Made by a program: the position numbers and the translations under genes
Source of the DNA: Nemertoderma westbladi
Taxonomy: Eukaryota; Animalia; Xenacoelomorpha
Direction: 5' to 3'
DNA: 64,000 nucleotides
Assembly: GCA_032718475.1 (NCBI GenBank)
Contig: JAUCBJ010000593.1
Span: 12,640 to 76,639 of the forward strand
In this document: positions 1,793 to 45,545 of the stretch, in pieces
How the letters are laid out: each line of letters starts with the position of its first letter
How positions within the stretch are numbered: position 1 is the stretch's first letter
The notes under the pieces: model-generated
The model's database searches: none
What the model was told of the DNA's origin: nothing
Seen by the model: only the letters and a program-made list of their open reading frames with translations

Positions 1793-3933
1793 TCCCCTCC
1801 ATCTCCTCTATAAGGCCCCCCCTTCCATATATCCCAGTCTCCCACCTCCCTTCATCTCCTCTATAAGGTCACCCTTCCATATATCCCAGCCTCCCACCTC
1901 CCTCCACCTCCTCTATAAGGGCCCCCTTCCATATATCCCAGCCTCCCACCTCCCTTCATCTCCTCTATAAGGTCACCCTTCCATATATCCCAGCCTCCCA
2001 CCTCCCTCCACCTCCTCTATAAGGGCTCTCCTTCAATATATCCCAGCATCCCACCTCCCTCCACCTCCTCTATAAGGGCCCCCTCCATATATCCCAGCCT
2101 CCCACCTCCCTTCATATCCTCTCTAAGGGCTCCCCTTCCATATATATCAGCCTCCCACCTCCCTCCATCTCCTCTATAAGGGATCCCCTTCCATATATCC
2201 CAGCCTCCCACCTCCCTTCATCTCCTCTCTAAGGGCCCCCCTTCCATATATATCAGCCTCCCACCTCCCTCCATCTCCTCTATAAGGGATCCCCTTCCAT
2301 ATATCCCAGCCTCCCACCTCCCTTCATCTCCTCTCTAAGGGCCCCCCTTCCATATATATCAGCCTCCCACCTCCCTCCATCTCCTCTATAAGGGATCCCC
2401 TTCCATATATCCCAGCCTCCCACCTCCCTTCATCTCCTCTCTAAGGGCCCTCCTTCCATATATCCCAGCCTCCCACCTCCCTCCATCTCCTCTATAAGGG
2501 ATCCCCTTCCATATATCCCAGCCTCCCACCTCCCTTCATCTCCTCTCTAAGGGCCCCCCTTCCATATATATCAGCCTCCCACTTCTTTCCATCTCCTCTA
2601 TAAGGGATCCCCCCCCCCCCACTTCCCTCCATCTCCTCTATAAGTCCTCTCCTTCCATATATCCCAGCCTCCCACCTCCCACCATCTCCTCTATAAGTCC
2701 TCTCTTTCCATATACCCCAGCCTCCCACATCCCTACATCTCCTCTATAGGGGCTCCCCTTCCACCTCCCTCCATCTCCTCTATAAGGCCTCTCCTTCCAT
2801 ATATCTCAGCCTCCCACCTCCCTCCATCTTCTCTATAAGGTATCCCCTTCCATATATTCCAACCGCCCACCTCCCTTCAGCTCCTCTATAAGGTCACCCT
2901 TCCATATATCCCAGCCTCCCACCTCCCTCCACCTCCTCTATAAGGGCTCTCCTTCAATATATCCCAGCATCCCACCTCCCTCCACCTCCTCTATAAGGGC
3001 CCCCTCCATATATCCCAGTCTCCAACCACCCTCCATCTCCTCTATAAGGCCTCTCCTTCAATATATCCCAGCCTCCCACCTCCCTCCATCTTCTCTATAA
3101 GGTATCCCCTTCCATATATCCAACCGCCCACCTCCCTTCAGCTCCTCTATAAGGTCACCCTTCCATATATCCCAGCCTCCCACCTCCCTCCACCTCCTCT
3201 ATAAGGGCTCTCCTTCAATATATCCCAGCATCCCACCTCCCTCCACCTCCTCTATAAGGGCCCCCTCCATATATCCCAGTCTCCAACCTCCCTCCATCTC
3301 CTCTATAAGGCCTCTCCTTCCATATATCCCAACCTCCCACCTCCCTCCATCTCCTCTATAAGGCCTCTCCTTCCATATATATCAGCCTCCCACCTCCCTC
3401 CATCTCCTCTATAAGGCCTCTCCGCTCTACAACTTGTATTTATTAATGTAGGCCTCTCCTTCCATATATCCCAACCTCCCACCTCCCTCCATCTCCTCTA
3501 TAAGGCCTCTCCTTCCATATATCCCAGCCTCCCACCTCCCTCCACCTCCTCTATAAGGGCTCTCCTTCAATATATCCCAGCATCCCACCTCCCTCCACCT
3601 CCTCTATAAGGGCCCCCTTCCATATATCCCAGTCTCCAACCACCCTCCATCTCCTCTATAAGTCCTCTCCTTCCATATATATCAGCCTCCCACCTCCGTC
3701 CATCTCCTCTATAAGGCCTCTCTGCTCTACAACTTGTATTTATTAATGTAGGCCTCTCCTTCCATATATCCCAACCTCCCACCTCCCTCCATCTCCTCTA
3801 TAAGGCCTCTCCTTCCATATATCTCAGCCTCCCACCTCCCTCCATCTCCTCTATAAGGCCTCTCCGCTCTACAACTTGTATTTATTAATGTAGGCCTCTC
3901 CTTCCATATATCCCAACCTCCCACCTCCCTCCA
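1793..3933. repeat. 53-bp pyrimidine-rich satellite (CCTTCCATATATCCCAGCCTCCCACCTCCCTCCATCTCCTCTATAAGGCCTCT), left part
   Basis: Tandem units visible, some with a 36-bp insert (CCGCTCTACAACTTGTATTTATTAATGTAGGCCTCT). Interrupted at 3934 by the LTR element. Confidence 0.97.
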
Positions 3934-5117
3934 TGTAAAGGCTTTTGCGTAATTAGCCGGTTATTTTCCCCGTAAAGTACTTTGTAGTTGGTTTAACAGG
4001 CATAAAAGGCCTTGTCCTTACTGTACTGTTGTTTTAGAGGACATAAAAGCCATTTCTTCTGTATGTGTACTTTAGCGGACATGATTAGCAATTTTATGAC
4101 GCAATGCGCCAAATCCTCTGTAAACAGTGTAGCTACCATGACGACGGCTAACAGCTGATGCTGTATACGTGGACCTTTTCTTTGTTCTCTGTTCCTTCTT
4201 TGTTCGGTCGACCAATCAGAGCGTTTTTTGCCTCTGTGTTAGAGATTGTATATAGAAACTCGTGGAGTTGAGTCAGTATGTGATTTTGTCCACAGCCTAC
4301 AACATCGGCTTTGGAACCTCCGTGTTTCAGTCTTTAGTCCAACATTAGTAGGCTTAATTATAGAACATATATCCATTATCTCACTCACTTAACTAATCAT
4401 ACATAACATATCATATCTCAATAATCATAACTTACTCATTCATAACTTAACATTGTACTGCTATTTACTGTCGTTTATTCATTATTTGTTGATGGAATAT
4501 TATATTTGGAATACTGATAAATAATCAGACACCCCAATCTTCTTGATATACTAAAGGTTAGAGAGACCGGTTACATATAACGATTGCGACTTACATTAAG
4601 TGGTTTGAAGTGAATCTAATGCTATTTTATTGGCCCTACACGTATTGTCTGTTGTTCTCCTTATATGTGACTAAAATTAGTGAAGGTCAGCAGATTGGTG
4701 TGCAACATTGTGCAGTATTGTGTATGATCGTGATTGATAACGAAGCATCTCCTAAAGAATGCGCCATATACGTGAATCTATAGCCATCCCGTTGTGTCTA
4801 GTTTAAGTCATAACTCTGTTTATATATTTAGAGCGCCACGTCCTAAAGGAACTGTTAATATTTCCCGAAAGTGAATAATATTTGTCAGAGATTATATATA
4901 TTACGATCAGTCGAATAATACAGTAGGCCTACCCCGCAATACGGTTAGGCTTCCGAATCCAATCTCCCGGGTATATCCAGCGGGTGAATGATCGCGCATA
5001 GACTGGTTTCGGTTAATGTAGTGTATCAAATACTTGTCATAGGCTAAAGACTATCTATCATCTAAAAGACATCCCAATTTGGCAGGTTAAACTGCTAAAG
5101 GTCTGAAAGCGCAAACA
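3934..5117 (+). repeat. 5' LTR (1184 bp)
   Basis: TG...CA termini; matches 17829-19011 with roughly 15 differences by manual comparison. Confidence 0.95.
4212..4277 (+). promoter_or_regulatory. Candidate LTR core promoter (CCAAT box, TATA-like, Inr-like TCAGT)
   Basis: CCAAT 4212-4216, TATATAGA 4249-4256, TCAGT 4273-4277 in plausible order and spacing. Motif evidence only. Confidence 0.35.
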
Positions 5118-5521
5118 ATAACAGATATAAAGTTCGGATTGCAGGGTAGGCAATAAATACAGTTTAATATTGTTCTGGTAAGAACAATAACAGATAACTA
5201 CGTACAATCAGAGGATATAGTTGTCTATTGTTCTGGTAAGAACAATAACAGATATAGCTTCTGTATTGCAGTAGGCAATAAAGCTGAAGTACCGGTTAAC
5301 CGGTACCTAGTAGGCCTGACTACCTAACTACCCGGACCGGTACCTACAGCAGTACAGGTACAGCAGTATTATTCGATTGTGAAATTGTATACCGGTAGGC
5401 TGTTTAAGAGATTAGGGACTGTACACCCCTTGTTTCTTTTGGAGCTTACTTATTTCTGTCAGTTTTATTTATTTGTAGGCCAGTATTGAGCAGAAGGCGT
5501 GTAAGCCTGCTCAGATTGTAC

Positions 5522-6097
5522 AGACAATTTGTAGGCTAGACTGTTGTCTGACTGTTGTTAGGTCTGAAGAGACTGTAGTGTGTGTAGAGCATATGTCCGA
5601 AAAAGTATTAGTTAGGAAAGTAGGGGCTGCCAGTGCTGTGAGGTGGACCCCCTCGAAAGAATAAGTCGTACTACTCGGTTAGAACGCATACTAACTAACC
5701 ATTTCGGAGTTTGCATATACTGTAGTGTATTTAGGCTTGATAGTAGTCTGCCAGCGTTTTCTGTACTTTGTTTGTGTAGTTTGTACGGGTAGCGTAATAT
5801 TTCTTACTTAGATAATTTGTAGGCTGGATTTTGTCTGGCTGTTGTTAGGTCTTGAGAGATTTCGGTGTGTGTAGAGTGTATGTCCGATAAAGTGCCAGTT
5901 GGGAACGTAGGGGCTTCCAGAGCTGTGAGGTAAACCCCCTCGAAAGAATAAGTCGTCCTACTAGGTTAGAACGCATACTAACTAACCATTTCGGAGTCTG
6001 CATATACCATAGTTTGTTTGGGCTTGATAGTAGTCTGTCAGTATTTGGTCTGCATTTTGTTTGAGTAGTCTGTACGCGTAGCGTAATATTTATTATT
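5522..6097. repeat. Diverged ~288-bp tandem duplication in the element's 5' leader
   Basis: AATTTGTAGGCT...CCCCCTCGAAAGAATAAGTCGT...GTAGCGTAATATTT occurs at ~5522-5809 and ~5810-6097. Confidence 0.85.
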
Positions 6098-7298
6098 CAG
6101 AGTTTATGCGATTATTCGCAACATTCATATCCCCAAGTTTATTCCTACAGTAATTGTGCTTGTTATATATACCGTTATAGTTAAACTAACCCCGGTACTA
6201 CATCAGGGCTGCTTGGCGTAGGTAAAGACTGGAGATTTTGTGCTTTGGTCACTCTGGCAGATACCGTGGTTCTTTTAGCTGTTCAAGTATTTTAACTACT
6301 AATTATATTTGTTGTATAAGTACTTGTACCTAATTTAGGGTTTAGTGTACAGTACTTTCCGAAGGTGATTAGTGTGTAGGCAGTATATTTGTGTTGTAAA
6401 GTGGTTAATAGGCACGTTGGTTCTGGTAGACCGCGGTAATTAACTTCTAGGTAGGAACACTCCGTGATACATAACGTAGTACTTATAGCGATATGGCTAT
6501 AAGTCGTCAGACGGTGGTATTTTCCTATCTGGACAACGCAGTATATTTACTACTACTTATTATTTTCAAATACCGTAGTACCCTGTCCTTTGTAATAACC
6601 AGATATTCTAACCCTTTGTTAGGCTGGTTAGTAGACTTCTTGTAAAATTACCCTAAAAATTCGTACTTGTAAATTTTTGTGTTTATTTAGAGATTGTAAT
6701 CTCACCCCGAATTGTATGTAATTTGTAGTATTAAGTAACTTAGGTAAATTAGAATTATTTGTTTTAGTGTCCAACAAGTAGCACTTCACTGAGAGCACAC
6801 AGCTTCTGTGTAGTGACTCCCCCAGAAATAATAACATTTATTTCAAATATTGACAAAAACCCATTTTAACGGGTATATATATTATAAATCAACTCAAACC
6901 GATTTATAAAATAGTAGGCCTGTCATACAACAATTAGGTCTAAATATCAGTTGGACTACTGCTTAAATAATGGTAATAAAGTAAGTTAAAGTAACCAAGT
7001 AACCCTAAAATTCAGAAATTCAGTTATTCTAAAATAATTGACATACCGGTATTCACGATAGGCCTATTATATATTTATAAATTTAGGCTGAAATTATACC
7101 GGTATTCTGTAATTAATTCTAGTTCATAATTATACTTATATATACTATAAGCATACCGGTATTCTAATATATTATATATATATCACGCTACACTGAGTAG
7201 CAGTATCGGTAATTAATTACTAGGCTAACAGTGATACTGAATTACTAGACTTGCTTAAACTGTAATAGAGCAGTAGGCATTCAACTGTACAAACAAAC

Positions 7299-10200
7299 AT
7301 GTCTGACACTAAACAAAACCTGTCGGACAGTCTCCTAGATACAACCATCTGTGACCCAGACAGGAGTGTGGAACGTGAGAGACCGAAGTTCAATTCACAT
7401 CCTACTGTAAGAAAGATCATCCCTCCAGTAGTAATATCAGACCCTAGGCTGGTCCAACACCGTAGGTCTATCATAGGCACTCGAGCTCAGGTCAAGCGGG
7501 ACCAAGAAGCAGCGGAACCGCAACAACCCGCGAGCCAAGAACTTATTTCTCAACGGCCCGACAGCTCCAGTAGTGCGGACACTGTAGAGCTGACACCCGA
7601 GCACGGAGCAAAGATGACAGATGCGGTTTATTCGGACCCCCTTCTCATCCTTCCTGCAGCCGTACTCACTAGGTTATTGATTGCGGTGGAAGAACACCAG
7701 ATCGATTGGGCGAGAAATAAGCGATCGACTAAAGATAGTTATGCGGGATACACAAGGGAAGAACTGAAGTCTATTGTCGAGTCGCAATGGAACTTCCCCG
7801 GACCCGGACTCCCGTTTGATTTATCAGAAGCTGCCTGGGAAGACATACACAGGATGGGAGTAACCAAGGAAACCATCGATCCAGCTGTGTGGAAGAGGTC
7901 CGCAGCCGGATACGCACAGGGATTCTTCAGCTCTATGGACCGATTAAAAGAACAACTGTTTCAACAACCCCAAGGACCTCAAGAGCAGGGACAGCTGCTT
8001 TATCAAGTTAGAGAAAGAATTCTACGAATCAGGCTAATCTTATCGGCCTTTGAGGAGGCTTCTAAAAGAAGACAAGACACGTCGTTGCAAGTTGTCGTAA
8101 AGACTTGGTTTCAACGGGTGAGTCTCCAGGATCAAGGAACGGCTCAGTGGAAAGCTCAGCTGGAGGAGCGCTCAACCCATGGAGAATCAACAGACGCTAC
8201 TTTTTCCCAAGTGGAAAGTGAAGCGACGGCAGAGAAACCGCATAAGAGGGATGCCATTGACATCTATCTGTCAGACTATCAGCGCTTTTTAGGAGATGAA
8301 GAGTTGAGGAGAAGGTTAGATGGACTTAGCCCTAATAGTGAAGGAACCCAGCGTGTGTTGGACGCCATCGATGTGGATATGAGAGCTGCGAACCAAGCTA
8401 GATTTGATGAACGCCTTCGCATCACTAGAGTCCAAGAAGAACAAGTGAAGAAAAAACGTATAGAAGACAGAAAGGCAGCGGCAGCAGCAGTGGCAGCTGC
8501 AGAAGCAGAAAGAAAAGCGGCAGTAGCAGCGGCAGAGGCAGAGGCGGAAAGAAAAGCGGCAGCGGCAGAAGCGGAAAGAAAGGCGGCAGTGGCAGCGGCC
8601 GAAGCGGAAAGAAAAGCGGCAGAGGCAGTGGCAGAAGCAGAACGGAGAGCGGCTGAAGAAACCACCCAATTAGAATTGGAAAACATTCAGGAGAATCAAG
8701 ACTGCATAAATAAACAGTTAACAGCTAGTAATATGCAGATGATGAATCGATCTACTCCCAAAAGACAGGGATATACATCATCTGAGGAAGGCGATACCAC
8801 CGATACTGAAGGCAAAGGAAATAGATCTCGTCTAAGCAGACGTAGAAGAACATCCCACCGTCAGAAATTGCCTGATTTGCCTCCAGCTGTTAGAAGGCAA
8901 CTAAATAACACAAACTTAGGTAGTACAGAACCCACAGACCAAATAATTAAAATAGAAAGACTCCCTACTATAGTAGATGAGCCTGAAATAATTAGGCCTG
9001 TTCCCGAAGCCACCCCTTCGGTGGTAGAGACACCTGTACTCCCTGAACCTACCTCTAAATTCCCTCTGCACAGCACTAAGCTACCTGTGCCCAGCAGAAC
9101 AGCCCATGAGACAATCCATGTCCTGGACTCCGAGCGAAATATTAATGATTTGTCGCCCGTTGTCCCTCGTCCGCCCGCTACAACGTTGGCGGCTCCCTCT
9201 TCGGCGGTCGAGTGGGTGGATGAGAGACGATGGGGGATGGATCTCCTGCTCGGGCAGATGCAGGAGACCGTTCAAAAATTCAAGGGCACAGTAAGGGAAA
9301 GTAGGTTAGAGTTGCAAGAAGTGCAGCAAAGTATCGCGCTAGAACGCGATAAATTAGTAAATACACAAAAGGGTATACCACCACCCCCTGTAACAATGTG
9401 TCAACCTGTTAGGTCTGAAGTGTTTCATGCGCAAGGTGTGGAGCCTACACGCATCTATACTGCTAGTGAAGTAGAAACTCCTATAGTAAACCCTATTAAG
9501 GGTAATTATAAACCTGTTGATAATGATATTCCCTATAGACCTGATCATAATCCGAGAAATTTATATACCGATAACTCGATATTAAATAACACGATGGCCC
9601 AAGAAAGTTTTACGCGTCAAATGGCTAGAACCGAAGCCCGTCAAGCGGTAAAGGTGGGAGAGATAGTCAAGTTCAATGGAGATGAGATGAAATGGTTACC
9701 TTTTAATGAATATTATAAAGATAACATACAGAACTCTGTACTATCTAATGGAGAGAAACTTAGATTCCTCATCGAGTGCTTGGAAGGAACTCCCAAGTTA
9801 ATGGCGTTAAAGATTATTGGACATCCCGATGGATTAAGACAAGTTTGGGATACCCTAAACATCAGGTATGGTAATAGGACTAACATAGCTAGGTATTTAT
9901 ATGCAAAATTAATGGCGCCCCGAAAGTTTCTTAGCAGCGGGATTATAGAGTTTTCCGACGAGATTCAGGAGATCTGTAGACAACTAGATTGGTTAGGTAA
10001 GTCTCATGAATACCAGAATTCTATGGTTGTAGGAGCCTTAGTATCTAATTTGCCCAAGGGCGGAGTAGGTACACGCTGGGACAAGACAGTGTTATACATG
10101 ATGGAACAACAACGAAGAGATCCTACCATGGCTGATCTCATGTCATTCTTAGATGGAGAAGTGAAATTGCAGCTCCTAAAGCAGTCCAGAGAGAAGACAC

Positions 10201-11876
10201 CGGAAAACAAGGTAAGTGAGAAACCCGTTTCTAGGAAAAAGGTAATACCAGTGTGTTATACAGACGACGGCGAAAGCCAGGCTTCTCAAGAGGAAGACAA
10301 CGGGAAAGACACTGAAAGATCTTACTATGACAACAAAGCGCTTAAGGACGTAAGTAAATTCAAGTCTCGAACCAATGACAGGAGAGAACAGGTAAGAAAA
10401 ACTCCTCCTACGTCTCCTAAGAGAATTCATGTAAGAAAGCCCGAGGAAAGAACGAGTGTGCACAACGTTACCCAAAGTAAGGTAAGTAACATCAAACCAA
10501 AATGTGTGCTGTGTGACGGGCCCCACCGTTTAAGTGTGTGTGATGAATTCCTAAGGAAATCACTAAAGGATAGACGGAAAGTCATGTGGGATAAGCGGTT
10601 GTGTTATAATTGCCTCAGACGAGGACACCAACGGCGAACCTGTTACTCCGACGCAAGTAAGGTAAGTGAGGTAAGTGAGTCCGAACTACATGTCCAATTC
10701 AGTGATGTGAACGACACTGACCAAAGTTCTGAGATGGAAGGATTCTATACGGACGAATTCTCAGACGAAAACGAATCCTGTTACTTAATAAATACCGCAG
10801 TGTATCGAGCACTTACGTATGAGAAGGAAACCAACAGTGAGCTCCCCGTAATTACTTCTGATCGACAACCATCTTGGAAAGCGCCAACTTCCAATGTAGG
10901 AATCCGAGAATTTCCTGTAGTACAGTTAAGGGTCCACGGACCTAAAAGGAGTTATATAGTGAACGCCCTCCTTGACTCCGGTAGCACAGGAACATTCATC
11001 GACAAAGAACTAGCCGAAGACATCTTTGCTGGACAACCCAAGTTCCGAACTAAGCTAAACATGTCAGGAATTATGCAGGTTTGGAAATCTACCGTAATAG
11101 CGGATTATTATGTAGGCGCGTTGTCCACCCCCCAGGATGAACTAGGAGAACACAGCATAAGGTCAGTAAAAATGGTCGCGATAAAGAACTTCGCTACCAG
11201 CCAAGTGGAACCTTATAACTGGGATGAGGACGATTTCACCCAGCAGCTTGAAATACCTAGATTCAACACCGATTACCCTGGAGTCCAAATACTCATCGGT
11301 CAAAATGCGCATGAAGCGCTCGAGACATTGGAGAAACGGCCTGCTCAACCGCAACCACTACAAGCTTATGCGGGAAGAACTAGAGTGGGTTGGTACTTTA
11401 CTGGCCCTTCCCGTAGAACTCTCATGGAAAGATTACCGAAAGATCAGGTATATCAATTAAGTGAACGGGAAGTGGAGAGCAGTGAAGTTGACGACCCAAC
11501 TGAGGGAACACCATACTCCTCAGATAATGACGATATCCACTCCAATGTAGATCAATGGAGACATTGCCCCGAGACGATTAATCTAGCCGACATCGCCTCC
11601 AGAGGAGCAACTCCTCAAGAACTGACAGATACTCCAGACTGGTTAGGTGAACCCGACTTCCTAAGTAAAGAAGATGAATGGCCTCCCCACCTTAACCCGG
11701 CTGAGATTAGACAGGCCAAGGGAGCGGAGAAAGTAACACAACCACTCAATCGCCCAGCTGGTCGTTTATGTTTACTGGAAAGAGACCGAAAACTGTCCAG
11801 AAACTATGGAAGGCAAGATACTCTTCCCACGACCACCTCCCTAATCCAACAAATATCTAGGGACTCCATAACGTAA
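7299..11876 (+). CDS. gag: BEL/Pao Gag-protease polyprotein (1525 aa) with RT, most of RNase H and integrase deleted
   Basis: DUF1759-like KFNGDEMKWLPF...LSNGEKLRFLIECLEG; zinc knuckles CVLCDGPHRLSVC and CYNCLRRGHQRRTC; protease NALLDSGSTGTFI...ILIGQ...RTRVGW; Pao RNase H tail QWRHCP..NLADIASRG..W.GEPDFL; pol C-terminus-like NRPAGRLCLLE. No YxDD RT motif or integrase core. Confidence 0.9.
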   Translation: MSDTKQNLSDSLLDTTICDPDRSVERERPKFNSHPTVRKIIPPVVISDPRLVQHRRSIIGTRAQVKRDQEAAEPQQPASQELISQRPDSSSSADTVELTPEHGAKMTDAVYSDPLLILPAAVLTRLLIAVEEHQIDWARNKRSTKDSYAGYTREELKSIVESQWNFPGPGLPFDLSEAAWEDIHRMGVTKETIDPAVWKRSAAGYAQGFFSSMDRLKEQLFQQPQGPQEQGQLLYQVRERILRIRLILSAFEEASKRRQDTSLQVVVKTWFQRVSLQDQGTAQWKAQLEERSTHGESTDATFSQVESEATAEKPHKRDAIDIYLSDYQRFLGDEELRRRLDGLSPNSEGTQRVLDAIDVDMRAANQARFDERLRITRVQEEQVKKKRIEDRKAAAAAVAAAEAERKAAVAAAEAEAERKAAAAEAERKAAVAAAEAERKAAEAVAEAERRAAEETTQLELENIQENQDCINKQLTASNMQMMNRSTPKRQGYTSSEEGDTTDTEGKGNRSRLSRRRRTSHRQKLPDLPPAVRRQLNNTNLGSTEPTDQIIKIERLPTIVDEPEIIRPVPEATPSVVETPVLPEPTSKFPLHSTKLPVPSRTAHETIHVLDSERNINDLSPVVPRPPATTLAAPSSAVEWVDERRWGMDLLLGQMQETVQKFKGTVRESRLELQEVQQSIALERDKLVNTQKGIPPPPVTMCQPVRSEVFHAQGVEPTRIYTASEVETPIVNPIKGNYKPVDNDIPYRPDHNPRNLYTDNSILNNTMAQESFTRQMARTEARQAVKVGEIVKFNGDEMKWLPFNEYYKDNIQNSVLSNGEKLRFLIECLEGTPKLMALKIIGHPDGLRQVWDTLNIRYGNRTNIARYLYAKLMAPRKFLSSGIIEFSDEIQEICRQLDWLGKSHEYQNSMVVGALVSNLPKGGVGTRWDKTVLYMMEQQRRDPTMADLMSFLDGEVKLQLLKQSREKTPENKVSEKPVSRKKVIPVCYTDDGESQASQEEDNGKDTERSYYDNKALKDVSKFKSRTNDRREQVRKTPPTSPKRIHVRKPEERTSVHNVTQSKVSNIKPKCVLCDGPHRLSVCDEFLRKSLKDRRKVMWDKRLCYNCLRRGHQRRTCYSDASKVSEVSESELHVQFSDVNDTDQSSEMEGFYTDEFSDENESCYLINTAVYRALTYEKETNSELPVITSDRQPSWKAPTSNVGIREFPVVQLRVHGPKRSYIVNALLDSGSTGTFIDKELAEDIFAGQPKFRTKLNMSGIMQVWKSTVIADYYVGALSTPQDELGEHSIRSVKMVAIKNFATSQVEPYNWDEDDFTQQLEIPRFNTDYPGVQILIGQNAHEALETLEKRPAQPQPLQAYAGRTRVGWYFTGPSRRTLMERLPKDQVYQLSEREVESSEVDDPTEGTPYSSDNDDIHSNVDQWRHCPETINLADIASRGATPQELTDTPDWLGEPDFLSKEDEWPPHLNPAEIRQAKGAEKVTQPLNRPAGRLCLLERDRKLSRNYGRQDTLPTTTSLIQQISRDSIT

Positions 11877-12418
11877 CAACATACGGAGTGGGTGTGTGAC
11901 TATATTATTTTATATTTATTTTATATTATGTATGTATTATTATGTAATTTTATTATAATCGTTTTCTTTAATTTTATTTAGTAGAATGTTATTTTAGCGA
12001 TTATTTAGTAGATTAGTGCAATATATATTCGCGTTTATTACTTAATTACTTATATATTATATATTTAGTGCGACGGCGAGAAATAATTCTTTTTCTCTTT
12101 CCTTACTGTCCGTATTACATTATAAATACGTGACTACAGTAAGATGAAATATCCGTACTTATTAAAGTACAATAAAGCTCCTACTATATTCAAGTATTAT
12201 TGGTAAGCAGGTATTAGGAATGCAAAGTTCAGATCCTCGTGTCTCGGCTAAACCAAGCTCTGGGTAGACCTTGGAAACGACTTGCCTCTTCTCACTGACA
12301 TTGCTTCGTGCGATATTGCTCTCATACCGTATATTGAATAATACATATAGTAGCGTGATGTCCCTTTAACAGTAGCGTAAAACGCAAAATAAATCTGTTA
12401 AACCCTTTGACCATCTGC

Positions 12419-12682
12419 AATTCTAGTCGATTAAGATATCGCGGCACCCACCGATATACTTGAAGGACAAATTCTAGAAGCAGTGGTTAACGTCCCCAGA
12501 CAAGTTCTGGAATAAACTGGTGCCCATCCTAAATATTAATTATTAATATTTACAAAATCTGTCAAATTTTAGATCCTTTAAAATTCTAGTCGATTAAGAT
12601 ATCGTAGCACTTACCGATACTCTTAAAAAGACAAAATTCCTAGAATCTAGGATCCCAGTCCCCAGACACGTTCTGGAATAAA
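12419..12682. repeat. Two diverged ~100-bp direct repeats (period ~163 bp) in the spacer between ORF1 and ORF2
   Basis: AATTCTAGTCGATTAAGATATCG...GTCCCCAGACAxGTTCTGGAATAAA appears twice. Confidence 0.8.
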
Positions 12683-13501
12683 ATTACGTCTATTTAACAT
12701 TAAATAATAAAATTTACGGGAATAAATTTAAATTCATATATTTCAATGAATTTAATAAATTGTCATTTTATACAATTTATAACATTCCCAAAATTCCATT
12801 AATTAATAGATCATGGGAGCGGAGATTCACCCTATTAAGTGTATTTGTGTGCGAGAATCTCCAATATATAGTCAATAGCCGATAAAATTCATAAAATCAT
12901 ATATAGAGAGGATATTGACAATTAAAGAATTACTATTAAATAGCATCCCAGATCTGTATGCATGAGAATTACCCTAATTCTACCGCTAGCTTTCCATAAT
13001 GTCACCATGGCAACAACCACGCTAGAATTAGAAGTGAGTTAAAAGAACAATAGAAGGCTTGCCCCATTGAATAGCATAGGGAATAAATAGCGCGCTGCTA
13101 GTATCCAAGGATACATAATAAATAAAGTGACATTCTGGAAGGTACTGACTAACGGACAAATGGCCCGAATGTGTACAGTTTATGGCAGTTGTGTTGAATT
13201 TGTGCGTTCATAGGTGAATGTTACTGCTAAAGTGTGTTTACAGTAGCTAGTCGCAATTGTGAAAGTAACCCTAACTCTCCAGAAAGAACCTGAAGTACAT
13301 CTAAGCCTTTGGGACGGACAGTGGAGTGACTTGTGCCGGTTATCGTTGTCGTTGTGTAGCTACATCATTGGCGAAAGCACAGCGACGACGGTACATCGGC
13401 GCTGAGGATCTTGCACTGTCCGGGGGCAAAAGAGGGGTAGGCAGCGACGCCCATAGCCTATTATATAAACTCATTATAATATTGATAAACTCATAGCAGA
13501 T

Positions 13502-16500
13502 ATGACTGAGTTGATAGAAGATGATCTTGGTATCAGGGAGCGATATACTCTACCTTTACAAGCGTTTGTCAATAGCTTGATACGCGGCGACGCTGGTCCA
13601 ACTACTACGGAGGATGATGGTCGTTATATCGAACCACCAATGTCCCCGGAGCAACTTACGCATGAATTGGATTATAGAAAGTTCACCGCTCGCTATACGC
13701 ATCGTAATGGTACGTATATGGACTTCTTAACTACTGGCCATCCTATCGATTTACACGATACGGACGATGTAGACACCGAAAGGGAAATGGTTTATTTAAA
13801 TATCATACCCAGCGGAGTCGGAACGATAAACCGAGAATGGAACACGAGAACTCTATTCGAAACAAACTCGAAAGGGAAGACGTTGAAGAGCCAGATAAAC
13901 GCAGCGACTTTAACGATTATCTGGAATTCCTGAGAGAGACATATCTCAATATTGCCAGCCAACAAATTCTCGAAACTCGATATCCTCAAGGTATACATCA
14001 TGACCCTATGATAGAACTCAAACGACTCTATTTCACTATGATGTATCTTACCGCCGATCGACCGCTACCTGTCGTTCCAGAAAGCTTCGAACAGATGGAG
14101 GAATATTGTAAAACTGGAGAACGATCACCCGCGTTTCCCCTGCAGGACGTGCGTCTTTGGTATTACTGCGACGAATGCCCTAGACCCAATCAGCAAACGG
14201 AAAGACATAAACATCCGCGGAGACGTTGCGCTAAACACAGTTTTACACGATATACTTATGGGAGTTTCGAGCGAAACCTGTTCGACGTATCCCCTACGGT
14301 CGCTCGACTCAAACAATCCCTGAACAAACCAATGATCATAGTTCCGGAATACTCGGTCAGACCTCCTCATTCCTCAGTTAGACCTCAGACTCTTGATCCT
14401 AATAGTATCACGGATCCTCCCAAACTGTATTTGCTGTTCAAAGATCTAGTGATACCCGAACAGTTGATCGGTGGCACTCCGGTAGTAGGCTCACTAGATA
14501 TTCGCCAACCCTACCTAACTGGATTGGGACGCGGTCATCCAATATCGCCGTTTAACCCACACAACCGTCCCGGCTTCACCTCGATACAACCCGTTACGGA
14601 AGTCGAAGAGAGCGTCGTACGAAACGCATTAGACGCTATTCGGCAGAAAATCGGAAAGGGAACTTACGATTGTTTGGAGAAACGTAAATTGCAACAACAA
14701 GTCCAAGCGGTGAAGGAATTAGCTTTACCCCAGTTCAATAGAGAAATACAAAATCTCGAGGAGGACATCAAACGTGGACGAACCTACTCTTTACAAGAGT
14801 TCCTAGATGAGCGTCTACAACAATAAGCGGAGGAAAATCAGCTCGAGGAGAGACATATAGAAATGGATGAGAGAGAAGAAGCAACTTTAGCTCAACCCGA
14901 AGCTCAAATCCTTATGACGGATCTCTACTCTAAAACCATCCTTCATCCCTCGATGGTTCCCCATTTCGGAGACAAACTCTTTGCTACGGTACAACCCCAA
15001 CCGGTTGATATCAACCTAAGATCTCGAGATCTTATCGCTGACGCTCCCATGTTGCAACGTCCGCCCATCGAAGCCGCTCGTGTCGATGGTATACTCGTTG
15101 AACCTCCGGACAATAGAGCGGATCTTGTCCGTCGCATGGTACACGATGTTAACATACGCGCTAGACCTTTACCGGACTCGTTTTATGGGATCAAAGATCA
15201 CCCTTATTACGTCAACCTAACACAATATTACATGGTGAAACCGGAAGATCCTACACATAGTCTGAGGTTTCTGCCACTCATAAATCCTCTCGATCTTGTC
15301 GAACTCGAACAACTGCATAAACATCTGGATCAGTTAGTTAAAATAAACTCATTTCGAAAACCATACAATGTTTCCAGAATAGAGAAAGAAACAATACCTC
15401 CGTATAATCTTGATGGATTCATCAAAACTCGTTTAGTACACTGGAATCTTGACGTGTTATTCGAGGAGGAAAGAATTCAACGATATGGAGATGTGGAAAC
15501 ATATACCACACAATATTTAAAGTATAGAGACCTACCTAATGCTAGCGAATGCGCTACCTTGTGGCATCCTATGGGAATGACCCTCGAAAACGCCACTAAA
15601 GAGTGGAATGAGACTCTTAACGTTATCGAGATGTATGGAGTTGTCACCTACGACAACGAAGGTAGCGTTCCGGTTGGAGAACTGGGAACTACGCGGATGA
15701 TACACATACGAGGACTCGCTGGTTCTACCCACGTATTTACTCGAGCGTGTTCCGATGTGATTGATTATTCTTTTGAGACTCTTACTGAGACACAAAAGAA
15801 ACTCCGACATGGACAATTCGAACTCGCGCAGCGTTATGTCGCCGACACCGAGCGCAAACCGGCCATGGGTATCGATGGATCGATGTTACCCCAGCCCGTG
15901 CTCGAGATGTTGTTTAACGAAAGAATCCTTAAAATCGGCTCAGCTGTTTATGGAGACCTACAAAACGACTTTCGGAATATGGAGAACATTCCATACCCCT
16001 TCGTTGATGGTCAGCTGATTGCTCCCTGGGCAGAAGGCCGAGGTTTCTTCCGCACTATGTATGCAAATACACCCAGCGGCATTACTAAAGTACAATGAAC
16101 CTCCATCGGACATCTTGCCTTTCAAGAATACGGATGGAATTTCAAGGTTGGAAATCCTATAAATTACCAACAAGTATATGGAGATCATTATTCTCGTTTA
16201 TACTTTGATGGACCATTGACTGCACCTGGCGCCGTGTATAGCTTTATGAGTGTTCCACTTCGTCCCTCCTTAGCTATATACACGATCTTTGAAAATGCAG
16301 CACTTGCCGGTTGGCTAGCCGATGTGTGCAGTCGTACCATACGCGCCCATCCCTTAATACTTGGAACCAAACTCGCCAAGTTAGATGAACACAATAAATT
16401 CATCCGCTTCGAATGTTTCAGGCGCTTTCTGACTCCGTTCCGTAACGTTGATAGTCAGTTCAAGGACCGCACTCTGACCAAACTCAGCCTAAGAGACTCA

Positions 16501-17523
16501 GCTGCGGAGAAGCTAAATAGCGCGGGATTTGCTCTCTTTCAGGACGTTTGTATACAGAACTTACATTCATCTGTTATACAAAGACCCCAAATACCCACGG
16601 GTTATTCTGTCGTGGAAGTTCAGACAGTGGGTCCGCTTGCGGAGACAGCCGCACCTACCTCAGCTATGCAATTGGAAGACGAACCAATCTGCTTAGAGTC
16701 TGAAGCGATCCAGCCTACAGCGCCCCGGAGCAGCGATAACGATTACGTCTTGGAGTGGTATCAAGGTCCACAATGTCTCACCGCATACGATTATCGACAC
16801 GCCAACTATGTTTCTCGAAAACGTTGTCGATTATGCGCATCGAGAGACCATTTCACCCCTATGGACTCAGACGTACCCTGCTCCTATTTCCACGAACAGC
16901 CGATGATGGAGATCTATTGTGCGTATTGCAGACTTAATAACTCGCATATTTTTGCAGTCTGCCCCCAATTTATGACCCAATGTCACCACTGTCAACTTAA
17001 AGGACATGCCAGTTATAATTGCCCCTTTAACCGCGATTTAGAAAGCGTAGATGAGATGATTACCCTGCGCTACATCCGAGCTTGGGAAGCGAACGCGGAT
17101 TTACATTGTGAGGCCCGCCATTGCTACTACCCTGGACGCTCTTACGAGGGAGTTTACGCGTTCCATCCTTATTTATTCGCGTCTGTGGAACAAAAAACAC
17201 GCACACCGAGTTACGAACTAATGAAGCGTGTTGGTGAGTGTATTTCCACCAAATTTGTTCGAAAATATCTTAGGAACGTCAATCCTAATGATATTACTTC
17301 ATACCATTTGATCAATTACATCCGTCAAGACCCTGAGTATGGCGATTTATTTATTAACTCGCACCCTGAGTTACAGGAAGTATCTCGACGGCCCTACGAA
17401 TATCGAGCCCGAGAACGCGAGCTGGAAAGAACCATTAAACCAAGGAAGTTTCTCACCACTCACGGTCCACCTACCGCCATTGTCCAGACGACCCGTCAAG
17501 GACCCGTCGCCCTAACGCCCTAA
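13502..17523 (+). pseudogene. Interrupted second ORF (~1,300 codons) of the LTR element: Cys/His motif, DEDDy 3'-5' exonuclease, CCHC zinc knuckles
   Basis: ORFs 13837, 14863 and 16216 share one frame and are separated only by single stops (TAA 14824, TGA 16096). ORF 13502 overlaps in the adjacent frame. ExoI-like GVVTYDNEG, ExoII-like LPQPVLEMLFNERILKIGSAVYGDL, TSIGHLAFQEYGWNFK, ExoIII-like PLRPSLAIYTIFENA; knuckles CAYCRLNNSHIFAVC and CHHCQLKGHASYNC. Confidence 0.75.
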
Positions 17524-17828
17524 CGCGCCCTAAAGGCCGTTAGACCTTGCTCCACTGAAGTTGATATCGATCAACCAGGTACCTCGACCGGGGATACACC
17601 GATCGTAATCCTAAACCTTCTGATGCAATTGTATTGCACCCTTCACCCAGGAGTTACAGCCCTCCTAGTAAAGTGGCTCGCCCCAAAGAGAAAAGGACTC
17701 TTGCTAGCCTCAAAAAACTACGTAAACGCCGTCCGCGTAAGAAAGACTAACTGTTTAGAGTATTTTTATATTTTAGAAACTGTGATTTGTTACATTTTAT
17801 AGACTTAAATCCCATTTTCTGGGAGCGG

Positions 17829-19011
17829 TGTAAAGGCTTTTGCGTAATTAGCCGGTTATTTTCCCCGTAAAGTACTTTGTAGTTGGTTTAACAGGCATAA
17901 AAGGCCTTGTCCTTACTGTACTGTTGTTTTAGAGGACATAAATGCCATTTCTTCTGTATGTGTACTTTAGCGGACATGATTAGCAATTTTATGACGCAAT
18001 GCGCCAAATCCTCTGTAAACAGTGTAGCTACCATGACGACGGCTAACAGCTGATGCTGTATACGTGGACCTTTTCTTTATTCTCTGTTCCTTCTTTGTTC
18101 GGTCGACCAATCAGAGCGTTTTTTGCCTCTGTGTTAGAGATTGTATATAGAAACTCGTGGAGTTGAGTCAGTATGTGATTTTGTCCACAGCCTACAACAT
18201 CGGCTTTGGAACCTCCGTGTTTCAGTCTTTAGTCCAACATTAGTAGGCTTAATTATAGAACGTATATCGTTATCTCACTCACTTAACTAATCATACATAA
18301 CATATCATATCTCAATAATCATAACTTACTCATTCATAACTTAACATTGTACTGCTATTTACTGTCGGTTATTCATTATTTGTTGATGGAATATTATATT
18401 TGGAATACTGATAAATAATCAGACACCCCAATCTTCTTGATATACTAAAGGTTAGAGAGAACGGTTACATATAATGATTGCGACTTACATTAAGTGGTTT
18501 GAAGTGAATCTAATGCTATTTTATAGGCCCTACACGTATTGTCTGTTGTTCTCCTTATATGTGACTAAAATTAGTGAAGGTCAGCAGATTGGTGTGCAGC
18601 ATTGTGCAGTATTGTGTATGATCGTGATTGATAACGAAGCATCTCCTAAAGAATGCGCCATATACGTGAATCTATAGCCATCCCGTTGTGTCTAGTTTAA
18701 GTCATAACTCTGTTTATATATTTAGAGCGCCATGTCCTAAAGGAACTGTTAATATTTCCCGAAAGTGAATAATATTTGTCAGAGATTATATATATTACGA
18801 TCAGTCGAATAATACAGTAGGCCTACCCCGCAATACGGTTAGGCTTCCGAATCCAGTCTCCCGGGTATATCCAGCGGGTGAATGATAGCGCATAGACTGG
18901 TTTCGGCTAATGTAGTGTATCAAATACTTGTCATAGGCTAAAGACTATCTATCATCTAAAAGACATCCCAATTTGGCAGGTTAAACTGCTAAAGGTCTGA
19001 AAGCGCGAACA
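17829..19011 (+). repeat. 3' LTR (1183 bp)
   Basis: Near-identical to 3934-5117; followed by TSD CTCCA and resumption of the satellite. Confidence 0.95.
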
Positions 19012-22000
19012 CTCCATCTCATCTATAAGGCCTCTCCTTCCATATATCCCAGCCTCCCACCTCCCTCCACCTCCTCTATAAGGGCCCCCTTCCATATATC
19101 CCAGTCTCCAACCACCCTCCATCTCCTCTATAAGGCCTCTCCTTCCATATATCTCAGCCTCCCACCTCCTTCCATCTCCTCTATAAGGCCTCTCCGCTCT
19201 ACAACTTGTATTTATTAATGTAGGCCTCTCCTTCCATATATCCCAACCTCCCACCTCCCTCCATCTCCTCTATAAGGCCTCTCCTTCCATATATCTCAGC
19301 CTCCCACCTCCCTCCATCTCCTCTATAAGGCCTCTCCGCTCTACAACTTGTATTTACTAATGTAGGCCTCTCCTTCCATATATCCCAACCTCCCACCTCC
19401 CTCCATCTCCTCTATAAGGCCTCTCCTTCCATATATCCCAGCCTCCCACCTCCCTTCATCTCCTCTATAAGGTCACCCTTCCATATATCCCAGCCTCCCA
19501 CCTCCCTCCATCTCCACTATAAGGGCCCCCTTCCATATATCCCAGTCTCCAACCTCCCTTCATCTCCTCTCTAAGGGCCCCCCTTCAATATATCCCAGCC
19601 TCCCACCTCCCTCCACCTCCTCTATAAGGCCTCTCCTTCCATATATCCCAGCCTCCCACCTCCCTTCATCTCCTCTATAAGGTCACCCTTCCATATATCC
19701 CAGCCTCCCACCTCCCTTCATCTCCTCTCTAAGGGCCCCCCTTCAATATATCCCAGCCTCCCACCTCCCTCCACCTCCTCTATAAGGCCTCTCCTTCCAT
19801 ATATCCCAGCCTCCCACCTCCCTCCACCTCCTCTATAAGGTCCCTCTTGCATATATCCCAGCCTCCCACCTCCCTTCATCTCCTCTCTAAGGGCCCCCCT
19901 TCCATATATCCCAGCCTCCAACCTCCCTGCATCTCCTCTATAAGTCCTCTCCTTCCATATATCCCAACCTCCCACCTCCCTCCATCCCCTCTATAAGGCC
20001 TCTCCTTCCATATATCCCAACCTCCCACCTCCCTCCATCCCCTCTATAAGGCCTCTCCTTCCATATATATCAGCCTCCCACCTCCCTCCACCTCCTCTAT
20101 AAGGGCTCTCCTTCAATATATCCCAGCATCCCACCTCCCTCCACCTCCTCTATAAGGGCCCCCTTCCATATATCCCAGTCTCCAACCACCCTCCATCTCC
20201 TCTATAAGGCCTCTCCTTCCATATATATCAGCCTCCCACCTCCCTCCATCTCCTCTATAAGGCCTCTCCGCTCTACAACTTGTATTTATTAATGTAGGCC
20301 TCTCCTTCCATATATCCCAACCTCCCACCTCCCTCCATCTCCTCTATAAGGCCTCTCCTTCCATATATCTCAGCCTCCCACCTCCCTCCATCTCCTCTAT
20401 AAGGCCTCTCCGCTCTACAACTTGTATTTATTAATGTAGGCCTCTCCTTCCATATATCCCAGCCTCCCACATCCCTCCATCTCCTCTATAAGGTCTCCCT
20501 TCCATATATCCCAGTCTCCAACCACCCTCCATCTCCTCTATAAGGCCTCTCCTTCCATATATATCAGCCTCCCACCTCCCTCCACCTCCTCTATAAGGGC
20601 TCTCCTTCAATATATCCCAGCATCCCACCTCCCTCCACCTCCTCTATGAGGGCCCCCTTCCATATATCCCAGTCTCCCGCCTCCCTCCACCTCCTCTATA
20701 AGGCCTCTCCTTCCACATATATCAGCCTCCCACCTCCCTCCATCTCCTCTATAAGGCCTCTCCGCTCTACAACTTGTATTTATTAATGTAGGCATCTCCT
20801 TCCATATATCCCAACCTCCCACCTTCCTCCATCTCCTCTATAAGGCCTCTCCTTCCATATATCTCAGCCTCCCACCTCCCTCCATCTCCTCTATAAGGCC
20901 TCTCCGCTCTACAACTTGTATTTATTAATGTAGGCCTCTCCTTCCATATATCCCAACCTCCCACCTCCCTCCATCTCATCTATAAGGCCTCTCCTTCCAT
21001 ATATCCCAGCCTCCCACCTCCCTTCATCTCCTCTATAAGGTCACCCTTCCATATATCCCAGCCTCCCACCTCCCTCCACCTCCTCTATAAGGGCCCCCTT
21101 CCATATATCCCAGTCTCCAACCACCCTCCATCTCCTCTATAAGGCCTCTCCTTCCATATATCTCAGCCTCCCACCTCCCTCCATCCCCTCTATAAGGCCT
21201 CTCCTTCCATATATCCCAACCTCCCACCTCCCTCCATCTCCTCTATAAGGCCTCTCCGCTCTACAACTTGTATTTATTAATGTAGGCCTCTCCTTCCATA
21301 TATCCCAACCTCCCACCTCCCTCCATCCCCTCTATAAGGCCTCTCCTTCCATATATCCCAACCTCCCACCTCCCTCCATCCCCTCTATAAGGCCTCTCCT
21401 TCCATATATATCAGCCTCCCACCTCCCTCCACCTCCTCTATAAGGGCTCTCCTTCAATATATCCCAGCATCCCACCTCCCTCCACCTCCTCTATAAGGGC
21501 CCCCTTCCATATATCCCAGTCTCCAACCACCCTCCATCTCCTCTATAAGGCCTCTCCTTCCATATATATCAGCCTCCCACCTCCCTCCATCTCCTCTATA
21601 AGGCCTCTCCGCTCTACAACTTGTATTTATTAATGTAGGCCTCTCCTTCCATATATCCCAACCTCCCACCTCCCTCCATCTCCTCTATAAGGCCTCTCCT
21701 TCCATATATCTCAGCCTCCCACCTCCCTCCATCTCCTCTATAAGGCCTCTCCGCTCTACAACTTGTATTTATTAATGTAGGCCTCTCCTTCCATATATCC
21801 CAGCCTCCCACATCCCTCCATCTCCTCTATAAGGTCTCCCTTCCATATATCCCAGTCTCCAACCACCCTCCATCTCCTCTATAAGGCCTCTCCTTCCATA
21901 TATATCAGCCTCCCACCTCCCTCCACCTCCTCTATAAGGGCTCTCCTTCAATATATCCCAGCATCCCACCTCCCTCCACCTCCTCTATGAGGGCCCCCTT

Positions 22001-25000
22001 CCATATATCCCAGTCTCCCGCCTCCCTCCACCTCCTCTATAAGGCCTCTCCTTCCATATATATCAGCCTCCCACCTCCCTCCATCTCCTCTATAAGGCCT
22101 CTCCGCTCTACAACTTGTATTTATTAATGTAGGCATCTCCTTCCATATATCCCAACCTCCCACCTCCCTCCATCTCCTCTATAAGGCCTCTCCTTCCATA
22201 TATCTCAGCCTCCCACCTCCCTCCATCTCCTCTATAAGGCCTCTCCGCTCTACAACTTGTATTTATTAATGTAGGCCTCTCCTTCCATATATCCCAACCT
22301 CCCACCTCCCTCCATCTCATCTATAAGGCCTCTCCTTCCATATATCCCAGCCTCCCACCTCCCTTCATCTCCTCTATAAGGTCACCCTTCCATATATCCC
22401 AGCCTCCCACCTCCCTCCACCTCCTCTATAAGGGCCCCCTTCCATATATCCCAGTCTCCAACCACCCTCCATCTCCTCTATAAGGCCTCTCCTTCCATAT
22501 ATCTCAGCCTCCCACCTCCCTCCATCCCCTCTATAAGGCCTCTCCTTCCATATATCCCAACCTCCCACCTCCCTCCATCTCCTCTATAAGGCCTCTCCGC
22601 TCTACAACTTGTATTTATTAATGTAGGCCTCTCCTTCCATATATCCCAACCTCCCACCTCCCTCCATCTCCTCTATAAGGCCTCTCCTTCCATATATCCC
22701 AGCCTCCCACCTCCCTTCATCTCCTCTATAAGGTCACCCTTCCATATATCCCAGCCTCCCACCTCCCTCCACCTCCTCTATAAGGCCTCTCCTTCCATAT
22801 ATCCCAGTCTCCCACCTCCCTCCATCTCCTCTATAAGGCCTCTCCTTCCATATATCCCAACCTCCCACCTCCCACCTCCCTCCACCTCCTCTATAAGGCC
22901 CCCCTTCCATATATCCCAACCTCCCACCTCCCTCCATCTCCTCTATAAGGCCTCTCCTTCCATATATCCCACCCTCCAACCACCCTCCATCTCCTCTATA
23001 AGGCCTCTCCTTCCATATATCCCAGCCTCCCACCTCCCTCCACCTCCTCTATAAGGCCCCCCCTTCCATATATCCCAGCCTCCCACCTCCCTCCATCCCC
23101 TCTATAAGGCCCCCCCTTCCATATATCCCAGCCTCCAACCTCCCTGCATCTCCTCTATAAGTCCTCTCCTTCCATATATCCCAACCTCCCACCTCCCTCC
23201 ATCCCCTCTATAAGTCCTCTCCTTCCATATATCCCAACCTCCCACCTCCCTCCACCTCCTCTATAAGGCCTCTCCTTCCATATATCCCAGCCTCCCACCT
23301 CCCTCCACCTCCTCTATAAGGGCTCTCCTTCCATATATCCCAGCCTCCCACCTCCCTCCATCTCCTCTATAAGGTCACCCTTCCATATATCCCAGCCTCC
23401 CACCTCCCTGCATCTCCTCTATAAGGTCCCCCTTCCATATATCCCAACCTCCCACCTCCCTCCATCTCCTCTATAAGGCCTCTCCTTCCATATATCCCAG
23501 CCTCCCACCTCCCTGCATCTCCTCTATAAGGCCTCTCCTTCCATATATCCCAACCTCCCACCTCCCTCCATCTCCTCTATAAGGCCCCCCCTTCCATATA
23601 TCCCAGCCTCCCACCTCCCTCCATCTCCTCTATAAGTCCTCTCCTTCCATATATCCCAGCCTCCCACCTCCCTCCATCTCCTCTATAAGGCCTCTCCTTC
23701 CATATATCCCAGCCTCCCACCTCCCTCCACCTCCTCTATAAGGCCCCCCCTTCCATATATCCCAGCCTCCAACCTCCCTGCATCTCCTCTATAAGTCCTC
23801 TCCTTCCATATATCCCAACCTCCCACCTCCCTCCACCTCCTCTATAAGGCCCCCCCTTCCATATATCCCAGCCTCCAACCTCCCTGCATCTCCTCTATAA
23901 GTCCTCTCCTTCCATATATCCCAACCTCCCACCTCCCTCCATCCCCTCTATAAGGCCTCTCCTTCCATATATCCCAGCCTCCCACCTCCCTCCACCTCCT
24001 CTATAAGGCCCCCCCTTCCATATATCCCAGCCTCCCACCTCCCTCCATCTCCTCTATAAGGTCCTCTCCTTCCATATATCCCAACCTCCCACCTCCCTCC
24101 ATCTCCTCTATAAGGCCTCTCCTTCCATATATCCCAGCCTCCCACCTCCCTCCACCTCCTCTATAAGGCCCCCCCTTCCATATATCCCAGCCTCCCACCT
24201 CCCTTCATCTCCTTTCTAAGGGCCCCCCTTCCATATATCCCAGCCTCCCACCTCCCTCCACCTCCTCTATAAGGTCACCCTTCCATATATCCCAGCCTCC
24301 CACCTCCCTCCATCTCCTCTATAAGGCCCCTCCTTCCATATATCCCAGCCTCCCACCTCCCACCATCTCCTCTATAAGGCCTCTCCTTCCATATATCCCA
24401 ACCTCCCGCCTCCCTCCATCCCCTCTATAAGGCCTCTCCTTCCATATATCTCAGCCTCCCACCTCCCTCCATCTCCTCTATAAGGCCTCTCCGCTCTACA
24501 ACTTGTATTTATTAATGTAGGCCTCTCCTTCCATATATCCCAACCTCCCACCTCCCTCCATCCCATCTATAAGGCCTCTCCTCCCATATATCCCAGCCTC
24601 CCACCTCCCTCCATCTCCTCTATAAGGTCTCCCTTCCATATATCCCAGCCTCCCACCTCCCTCCATCTCCTCTATAAGGCCTCTCCGCTCTACAACTTGT
24701 ATTTATTAATGTAGGCCTCTCCTTCCATATATCCCAGCCTCCCACCTCCCTCCATCTCCTCTATAAGGTCTCCCTTCCATATATCCCAGCCTCCCACCTC
24801 CCTCCATCTCCTCTATAAGGCCTCTCCGCTCTACAACTTGTATTTATTAATGTAGGCCTCTCCTTCCATATATCCCAACCTCCCACCTCCCTCCATCTCC
24901 TCTATAAGGCCTCTCCTTCCATATATCCCAACCTCCCGCCTCCCTCCATCTCCTCTATAAGGTCTCCCTTCCATATATCCCAGCCTCCCACCTCCCTCCA

Positions 25001-45514: not shown

Positions 45515-45545
45515 ATTTAATTCCAAATTAACTTGTCCAAATCAT

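Follow-up and report, generated by a model that had tools for sequence, protein, structure and literature searches.

A double-deleted BEL/Pao retrotransposon family of Nemertoderma westbladi that probably moves with its own Gag-protease and the enzymes of complete relatives

Long terminal repeat (LTR) retrotransposons of the BEL/Pao superfamily usually measure 4.2–10 kb with LTRs of 0.2–1.2 kb, and few of them carry an env gene (de la Chaux & Wagner 2011, PMC3118150). Non-autonomous LTR families of plants retaining GAG or GAG/PROT, in some cases with remnants of reverse transcriptase (RT), RNase H (RH) and integrase (INT), are mobile without enzymes of their own (PMC9784723, PMC13570524). The mouse intracisternal A particle (IAP) element 1Δ1 has an internal deletion that leaves an open gag-pol fusion open reading frame (ORF); it relies on proteins supplied in trans, it outruns the helper, and action in cis is reported for the fusion protein (PMC6466679). 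DEDDy exonucleases are encoded by ORF3s of the bdelloid LTR elements Juno and Vesta, all of which encode pol, and of Terminons (PMC5408684), and one is present in Dada transposons (PMC3706591). Material between the LTRs rarely exceeds 10 kb in comparable cases (review, PMC6431247). No DEDDy ORF is reported for BEL/Pao in the available parts of PMC13524379 and PMC6338049, and no published DEDDy-carrying or double-deleted BEL/Pao family was found in the literature outside subscription journals, supplements and Repbase. Here, we describe a BEL/Pao element of 15.1 kb in a 64,000-nt stretch of Nemertoderma westbladi DNA (assembly GCA_032718475.1, contig JAUCBJ010000593.1, positions 12,640–76,639), referred to as the window, whose positions are used for all coordinates. 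The element belongs to an abundant family with two deletions in pol, which lacks RT and integrase and which probably moves by means of its own Gag-protease and of enzymes supplied by rarer complete relatives.

ORF1 of the element (7299–11876; ORF list and domain comparison) comprises 1,525 codons without a stop and lies, like all features of the element described here, on the forward strand. As stated in the original prediction, ORF1 is open and codes for a Pao Gag and a protease. It contains the Pao Gag domain DUF1759 (PF03564; 9672–10058; Pfam, E 4.7e-12), two Gag Cys/His knuckles detected by motif comparison (10503–10643) and an aspartic protease region (10860–11411) with a DSG motif at 10974, which matches PF13650 only at E 0.031 and is collinear with the Pao polyprotein P0002; a PDB sequence search with the protease was empty. 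The latter polyprotein is one of three relatives of ORF1 that a protein search returned among 6,579 candidates, all of them Pao polyproteins (P0002–P0004) of 22–29% identity. ORF1 residues 780–1371 align with residues 437–914 of P0002 and residues 1414–1462 with residues 1480–1529, and about ten residues at approximately 1486–1495 weakly resemble its C-terminal end. These blocks are separated by two junctions that are apparent from the P0002 alignment, the profile described below and the contigs: at junction 1 (11534–11540), approximately 520 residues comprising RT and most of RNase H are missing, and at junction 2 (11734–11745), approximately 480 residues comprising the integrase. Between them, the C-terminal part of the Pao RNase H/connection region (11538–11708; P0002 alignment and profile) is retained as a remnant, and the weak ten-residue match to the end of P0002, the last Pao polyprotein motif, follows at 11754–11783. 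Both deletions are in frame, and ORF1 continues across them.

When a profile of the three full Pao polyproteins was scanned in six frames, it matched the element only at positions 127–619 (E 5e-35) and 1183–1240 (E 1.5e-9) of its 1,754 positions, and RT and integrase were absent from the element in all six frames. As a positive control, an unrelated Pao fragment of the window (47.3–48.4 kb) was recognized by the same scan through its RNase H and integrase, so that the scan is able to see these domains. The predicted lack of an own RT and integrase was thereby confirmed: the element has a Pao-type Gag DUF1759 and the Pao polyprotein order, and the RT, RNase H and integrase set of an autonomous element was not found in it. 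Its placement in BEL/Pao rests on this Gag and this order, RT, the basis of the superfamily phylogeny, being absent. The N-terminal extension of ORF1 before the Gag core (7299–9630) is unusually long (approximately 780 residues) and has an Ala/Glu-rich repeat (Ala/Glu/Lys); searches of domain libraries gave no informative family match for it.

For the family test, contigs from sequencing runs were compared with the window sequence. The stretch was present in five of the seven listed runs (four studies), and four of these five, one per study, were compared (X1, X3, X4 and X5); X5 carries another organism label, and that it is RNA is a guess only. The 13.9-kb element was matched by 124,621, 35,183, 1,121 and 723 contigs in X1, X3, X4 and X5, respectively, with 30 of 30 bins covered, and the 661 nt around the junctions by 6,521, 1,745, 84 and 67 contigs; summed contig depth was not taken as copy number. 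Variant contigs crossed junction 1 (place 11538) in all four runs (49, 12, 5 and 3 contigs, in the same order), reaching 31–70 nt from contig ends, as well as junction 2 (place 11743; 60, 20, 3 and 3 contigs), reaching 29–56 nt from the ends. The listed pieces spanning junction 1 comprise 11490–11618 in X5 and 11335–11567 in X4, and a listed piece of X3 spans junction 2 (11704–11809; depth 4,671). The junction-crossing contigs differ by 5–20% from the window copy, and 3,106 of the 6,521 X1 contigs over the 661 nt are less than 95% alike to the window, which indicates that the deleted form arose long ago and has since diversified. A depth dip at 11441–11486 falls in a variable linker spanned by long pieces and was not used as evidence.

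Since many diverged contigs extend across each junction in four of four runs, the double deletion is common to many diverged copies and constitutes family structure rather than the decay of one locus. Ordinary decay, in which a complete element would have lost RT and integrase at the window locus only, would be in line with the decaying ORF2 and the missing Gag knuckle of the window copy described below, but the crossing of both junctions in every run largely refutes it and both deletions keep the frame, so that we consider it extremely improbable. The claims that the element represents a multi-copy non-autonomous family with an open Gag-protease and that its structure is not ordinary decay are therefore upheld, the deletions not being unique to this locus. 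In addition, loose ends occur at both junctions, namely behind 11536 in X1 (11 contigs) and behind 11534 in X5 (255 nt) for junction 1, and behind 11734 (5, 4 and 4 contigs in X3, X4 and X5) and before 11739–11748 (X1 and X3) for junction 2; these loose ends indicate that less-deleted forms exist. A piece of X4 departing from the window at 11540 had a depth of 30, compared to 743 for a window-type piece running 16–20 nt past junction 1.

The window copy itself is recently inserted. Its 5' LTR (3934–5117; 1,184 nt) and 3' LTR (17829–19011; 1,183 nt), delimited by LTR comparison and both of the TG..CA type, are 98.7% identical with one indel and 14 substitutions, of which 9 are transitions and 5 are transversions, corresponding to a Kimura two-parameter (K2P) distance of 0.012. 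The element is flanked by a perfect 5-bp target site duplication (TSD), CTCCA (3929–3933 and 19012–19016), which is a duplicated part of one 53-bp satellite unit. A 5-bp TSD is typical of BEL/Pao. The low K2P distance together with the TSD within a single satellite unit points to a young retrotransposition. Approximately 15 LTR differences, the TSD, a 2.2-kb leader (5118–7298; 2,181 nt) and a 1.6-kb spacer (11877–13501; 1,625 nt, AT-rich with a duplication of approximately 100 nt) had all been described correctly beforehand. A short purine-rich tract preceding the 3' LTR (17820–17828) may serve as polypurine tract.

These data also bear on the possibility that the copies of a single old insertion carrying the deletions arose at the DNA level, by unequal crossing-over or segmental duplication together with satellites, and not by retrotransposition in trans. 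The surroundings would suit such a process, as the window is full of satellites, the element sits inside a 53-bp satellite (1795–3933 on the left and 19012–27302 on the right, as delimited by TRF) and a second TSD was not seen. However, this array of approximately 25 kb (~1.8–27.3 kb) contains only one such element, and the same junctions are present in the run with another organism label (X5). Furthermore, the LTRs differ by 1.2% compared to 5–20% between the junction-crossing contigs and the window copy, so that fresh homogenization of the LTRs by reverse transcription after the deletions would still be needed. We therefore regard amplification at the DNA level as very unlikely; most likely, as judged from these sequence differences, the deleted form was reverse-transcribed after the deletions had arisen.

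Downstream of the spacer, in the position of an ORF3, lies ORF2 (13502–17523; reading frames), which starts with an ATG at 13502 and comprises approximately 1,340 codons. The predicted second ORF of about 4 kb is not intact: in the window copy it is interrupted by a frameshift near 13790 (13.79 kb) and by two stops in frame, at 14824 and 16096. The ORF contains a predicted DEDDy-like 3'-5' exonuclease domain (15610–16330; Atlas, P0005 alignment and NCBIfam) and three CX2CX4-5H zinc-knuckle motifs (16825–17022; motif comparison). In the Atlas, residues 180–423 of the middle piece of ORF2 fall with 3'-5' exonuclease clusters (best 0.90; 130–139 of 256 features shared), and all ten family-bearing top hits belong to the family or clan of DNA_pol_A_exo1; NCBIfam returned RNase D at E 0.054. 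An exhaustive HMMER search yielded a sole homologue, the singleton protein P0005 (E 2.5e-5), which is encoded on an ENA contig of 9.4 kb. P0005 has the same layout as ORF2, with a nuclease-like block followed by CCHC knuckles, and its PDB matches are mainly zinc-knuckle chains. The alignment of the two domains scored 216 compared to 58±12 for shuffled sequences, with the motifs D-x-E, D and Y-x3-E aligned. All acidic motifs, ExoI D-x-E, ExoII D and ExoIII, are present in ORF2, the latter as Y-x3-E (E for D) in both proteins. Although none of these comparisons is decisive by itself, taken together they make it likely that ORF2 is a DEDDy-like exonuclease gene with CCHC knuckles. Two word-based homologue searches with a length-limited ORF2 query found nothing, and no ORF2 relative was detected in metagenome scans and a viral scan. 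We rejected env as an identity of ORF2, as it has no membrane segment (highest 19-residue hydropathy 1.19). A recent capture of ORF2 from the host is disfavoured by its codon use, which correlates with that of ORF1 (r 0.45) and not with that of two neighbouring host genes (−0.13 and −0.02), the only two compared.

The stop at 16096 lies between ExoII and ExoIII inside the nuclease domain and splits it, so that the window copy is unable to make a whole exonuclease. At the frameshift site, length differences occur in contigs of four of four runs (about 40–60% of depth), which indicates that this break is not fixed in the family. Just past the frameshift, a heptamer T-TTA-AAT is found in the upstream frame (13795–13801), and the two frames overlap by 225 nt. 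This heptamer is shaped like a −1 ribosomal slippery site, but it is probably there by chance because other copies differ in length at this place. In X1 and X3, the summed depth of the ORF2 core is approximately 3–8x below that of ORF1 (X1: ~120–280 thousand compared to 410–1,390 thousand), and contigs of all four runs have joints that leave out 2.5–2.8 kb of ORF2 (from 13868 to 16674, from 14858 to 17405, and from 14863 to 17592 or 17611). ORF2, broken here and deleted in many copies, thus has the appearance of an inherited accessory gene in ORF3 position, lost from many mobile copies and dispensable for mobilization, rather than of active cargo. As to the predicted nuclease cargo, ORF2 is very likely a nuclease gene, whereas a retro-vector delivering a working nuclease is not supported, in view of the broken frame, the low depth of the core and the skips.

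A cargo vector might still work if a subset of double-deleted copies kept ORF2 intact and acted as masters, with the exonuclease aiding the family, possibly through trimming of the ends of RNA or primers or through a weakening of silencing by small RNAs. Such a role would agree with the preservation of all acidic motif residues in alignment with P0005, with the unfixed frameshift and with pieces of 341–538 nt in X5 that span most of 14885–17687 at 85–89% and with few gaps. Moreover, the three lesions of ORF2 fit neutral decay since insertion (approximately 1.1 stops and 1.6 indels, with the indel rate taken from one LTR indel). On the other hand, the depth deficit of the core and the several independent large deletions argue against such masters, only 6 of the 12 listed ORF2 sites are synonymous (P 0.18), and the window-type frameshift state accounts for about half of the depth, so that ORF2 may have been inherited broken. 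Overall, we consider a working cargo vector unlikely.

According to the reading that we prefer, the element would be transcribed from its 5' LTR, in which CCAAT (4212), TATA-like (4249) and TCAGT (4273) motifs may act as promoter. Its own Gag-protease would then be made and could favour packaging of its own RNA in cis, as reported for mouse IAP 1Δ1, and a rarer complete relative in the same genome would supply the particles with RT and integrase. The predicted DEDDy exonuclease ORF would have been inherited from an autonomous ancestor as a dispensable ORF3. Traces of selection on ORF1 were assessed on the best-supported variants only (the best 40 of 2,757 and 40 of 185 substitutions, and the best 12 of 261 and 12 of 16 indels), of which those inside ORFs were used. 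All three indels listed inside ORF1 are 3 nt long (one of 12 rows of the whole-element set and two of 12 of the junction set), and those listed in leader and spacer are mostly not. Synonymous sites make up 25 of the 55 listed variant sites in ORF1 compared to 32–34% expected (P 0.03–0.04), including 6 of 8 in the protease tail. In the window copy, ORF1 has no lesions compared to approximately 1.3 stops and 1.9 indels expected since insertion at an indel rate derived from one LTR event. Because of the restriction to the best-supported rows, these results are suggestive only of selection on ORF1.

Apart from this restriction, several observations weigh against mobilization in trans by complete relatives or against parts of this reading. 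A complete helper was not seen in the contigs, in which loose ends extend for 255 nt at most, and no second insertion site or TSD was seen in these contigs, which are too short to reveal one. One 518-nt contig of X5 links 11734 to 11792 with at most approximately 366 nt in between (20-nt anchor); this is too short for an integrase and speaks for a sister subfamily whose integrase deletion is smaller, rather than for a complete pol. The proportion of contigs whose continuation departs from the window is 0 in X1 and 0.01 in X3, and reaches 0.18 in X4 and 0.19 in X5. The window itself may derive from the sample sequenced in X1. The third Gag knuckle of P0002–P0004 is missing from the window copy; at this spot, contigs of X3, X4 and X5 deviate from the window (joints at 10653–10665, loose end at 10652). 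The RNase H remnant and the tail look unselected, as only 5 synonymous sites are found among the 16 listed for them. With regard to the exonuclease, Pfam and PDB sequence searches with the nuclease region of ORF2 gave no match, a PDB search with ORF2 was empty as well, and a single-sequence AlphaFold model of the region reached a pLDDT (predicted local distance difference test) of 32 and was unusable. Finally, BEL/Pao elements canonically prime from a TGG primer-binding site for a transfer RNA (tRNA) after the 5' LTR; directly after the 5' LTR of the window copy no such site was found, and the first TGG lies 59 nt into the leader.

No tRNA genes are present in the 64-kb window. The leader contains a 29-nt repeat at 5168 and 5226 and a duplication of approximately 285 nt at 5522 and 5810. 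Sequence from the LTR end and primer position (5110–5270) recurs three times in the leader, with copies 2 and 3 in hairpins, and one X1 contig skips 5129–5240. An Rfam search with element and leader returned chance matches only and gave no support for a resemblance between the leader repeat and U2 small nuclear RNA. Self-priming via the own LTR was rejected, as the best helix of 11 bp with 2 wobbles was equalled in 14 of 200 shuffles; the same applies to spliced self-priming, where the best match of 10 nt was equalled in 55 of 200 shuffles. On the sense strand of gag, six splice-donor-like AGGTAAG(T) motifs occur between 9995 and 10675 compared to 1.1 expected (at most 4 in any of 300 shuffles); the antisense strand has none. 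The motif was picked after being seen, and its copies might bind U1 or serve as donors for an ORF2 message. One could conceive of a two-part BEL/Pao system in which the abundant satellite family would provide Gag-protease and, from intact members, the knuckle exonuclease for preparing a non-tRNA primer or as a shield of element RNA against silencing, and in which the rare helper would contribute only RT and integrase, but we rate this arrangement as distinctly unlikely.

Elsewhere in the window, a broken Pao fragment (47291–48495) unrelated to the element lies between satellite arrays and comprises a Peptidase_A17/RNase H region, integrase and DUF5641. It was rejected as helper for want of any DNA match to the element. 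Two intronless host genes, coding for an M20 peptidase (34463–35752, reverse strand) and a phosphoglucomutase (37697–39517, forward strand), are arranged head to head amid satellites. Further satellite arrays with units of 38, 50, 25, 20, 30 and 34 nt lie side by side at 3–962, 40706–52539 and 53517–64000, and an array of 32-nt units with approximately 99.9% identity extends over more than 10 kb and runs off the end of the window.

Non-autonomous LTR elements that keep Gag and protease and DEDDy ORF3s are both known already; their combination in BEL/Pao was not found in the literature searched. Like BEL/Pao elements (PMC3118150), the window element has a DUF1759 Gag, knuckles, protease, RNase H tail and terminal motif in collinear order and LTRs within the usual length range, but it differs from them by its size of 15.1 kb, the lack of RT and integrase, an extra ORF that is not env and the lack of a TGG primer site. 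The latter bears on the question of how some BEL/Pao elements prime. With the plant TR-GAG and GAG/PROT families it shares two LTRs around a kept Gag or Gag-protease gene, pol remnants, which occur in some of those families, and a deleted structure common to many copies; in contrast to these derivatives of Ty1/Ty3, it belongs to BEL/Pao and has two in-frame deletions in one ORF as well as a 4-kb accessory ORF. As in mouse IAP 1Δ1, in-frame deletion leaves an open gag-pol fusion ORF, but the IAP element is a vertebrate endogenous retrovirus with a single 1.9-kb deletion that also takes part of gag, and action in cis is only presumed for the element described here. The bdelloid ORF3s resemble ORF2 in being predicted DEDDy-type ORFs downstream of pol that are patchily kept and have a varied acidic motif (DEED in bdelloids, D-E-D-E here). 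However, the rotifer LTR families all code for pol and are of retrovirus-like type (with chromodomain and GPY/F discussed) and not Pao, whereas ORF2, of approximately 1,340 codons, has CCHC knuckles in its C-terminal part and belongs to a family that lacks pol; the likeness is one of description. An abundant 15-kb family of this sort would be overlooked by annotation pipelines keyed to RT or integrase, and its coexisting copies with and without the exonuclease ORF offer a natural comparison for the role of DEDDy genes in retroelements. If our reading is correct, helper parasites that keep Gag and protease, known from plants and mouse IAP, extend to BEL/Pao, as do the DEDDy exonuclease accessory genes of the retrovirus-like elements of rotifers.

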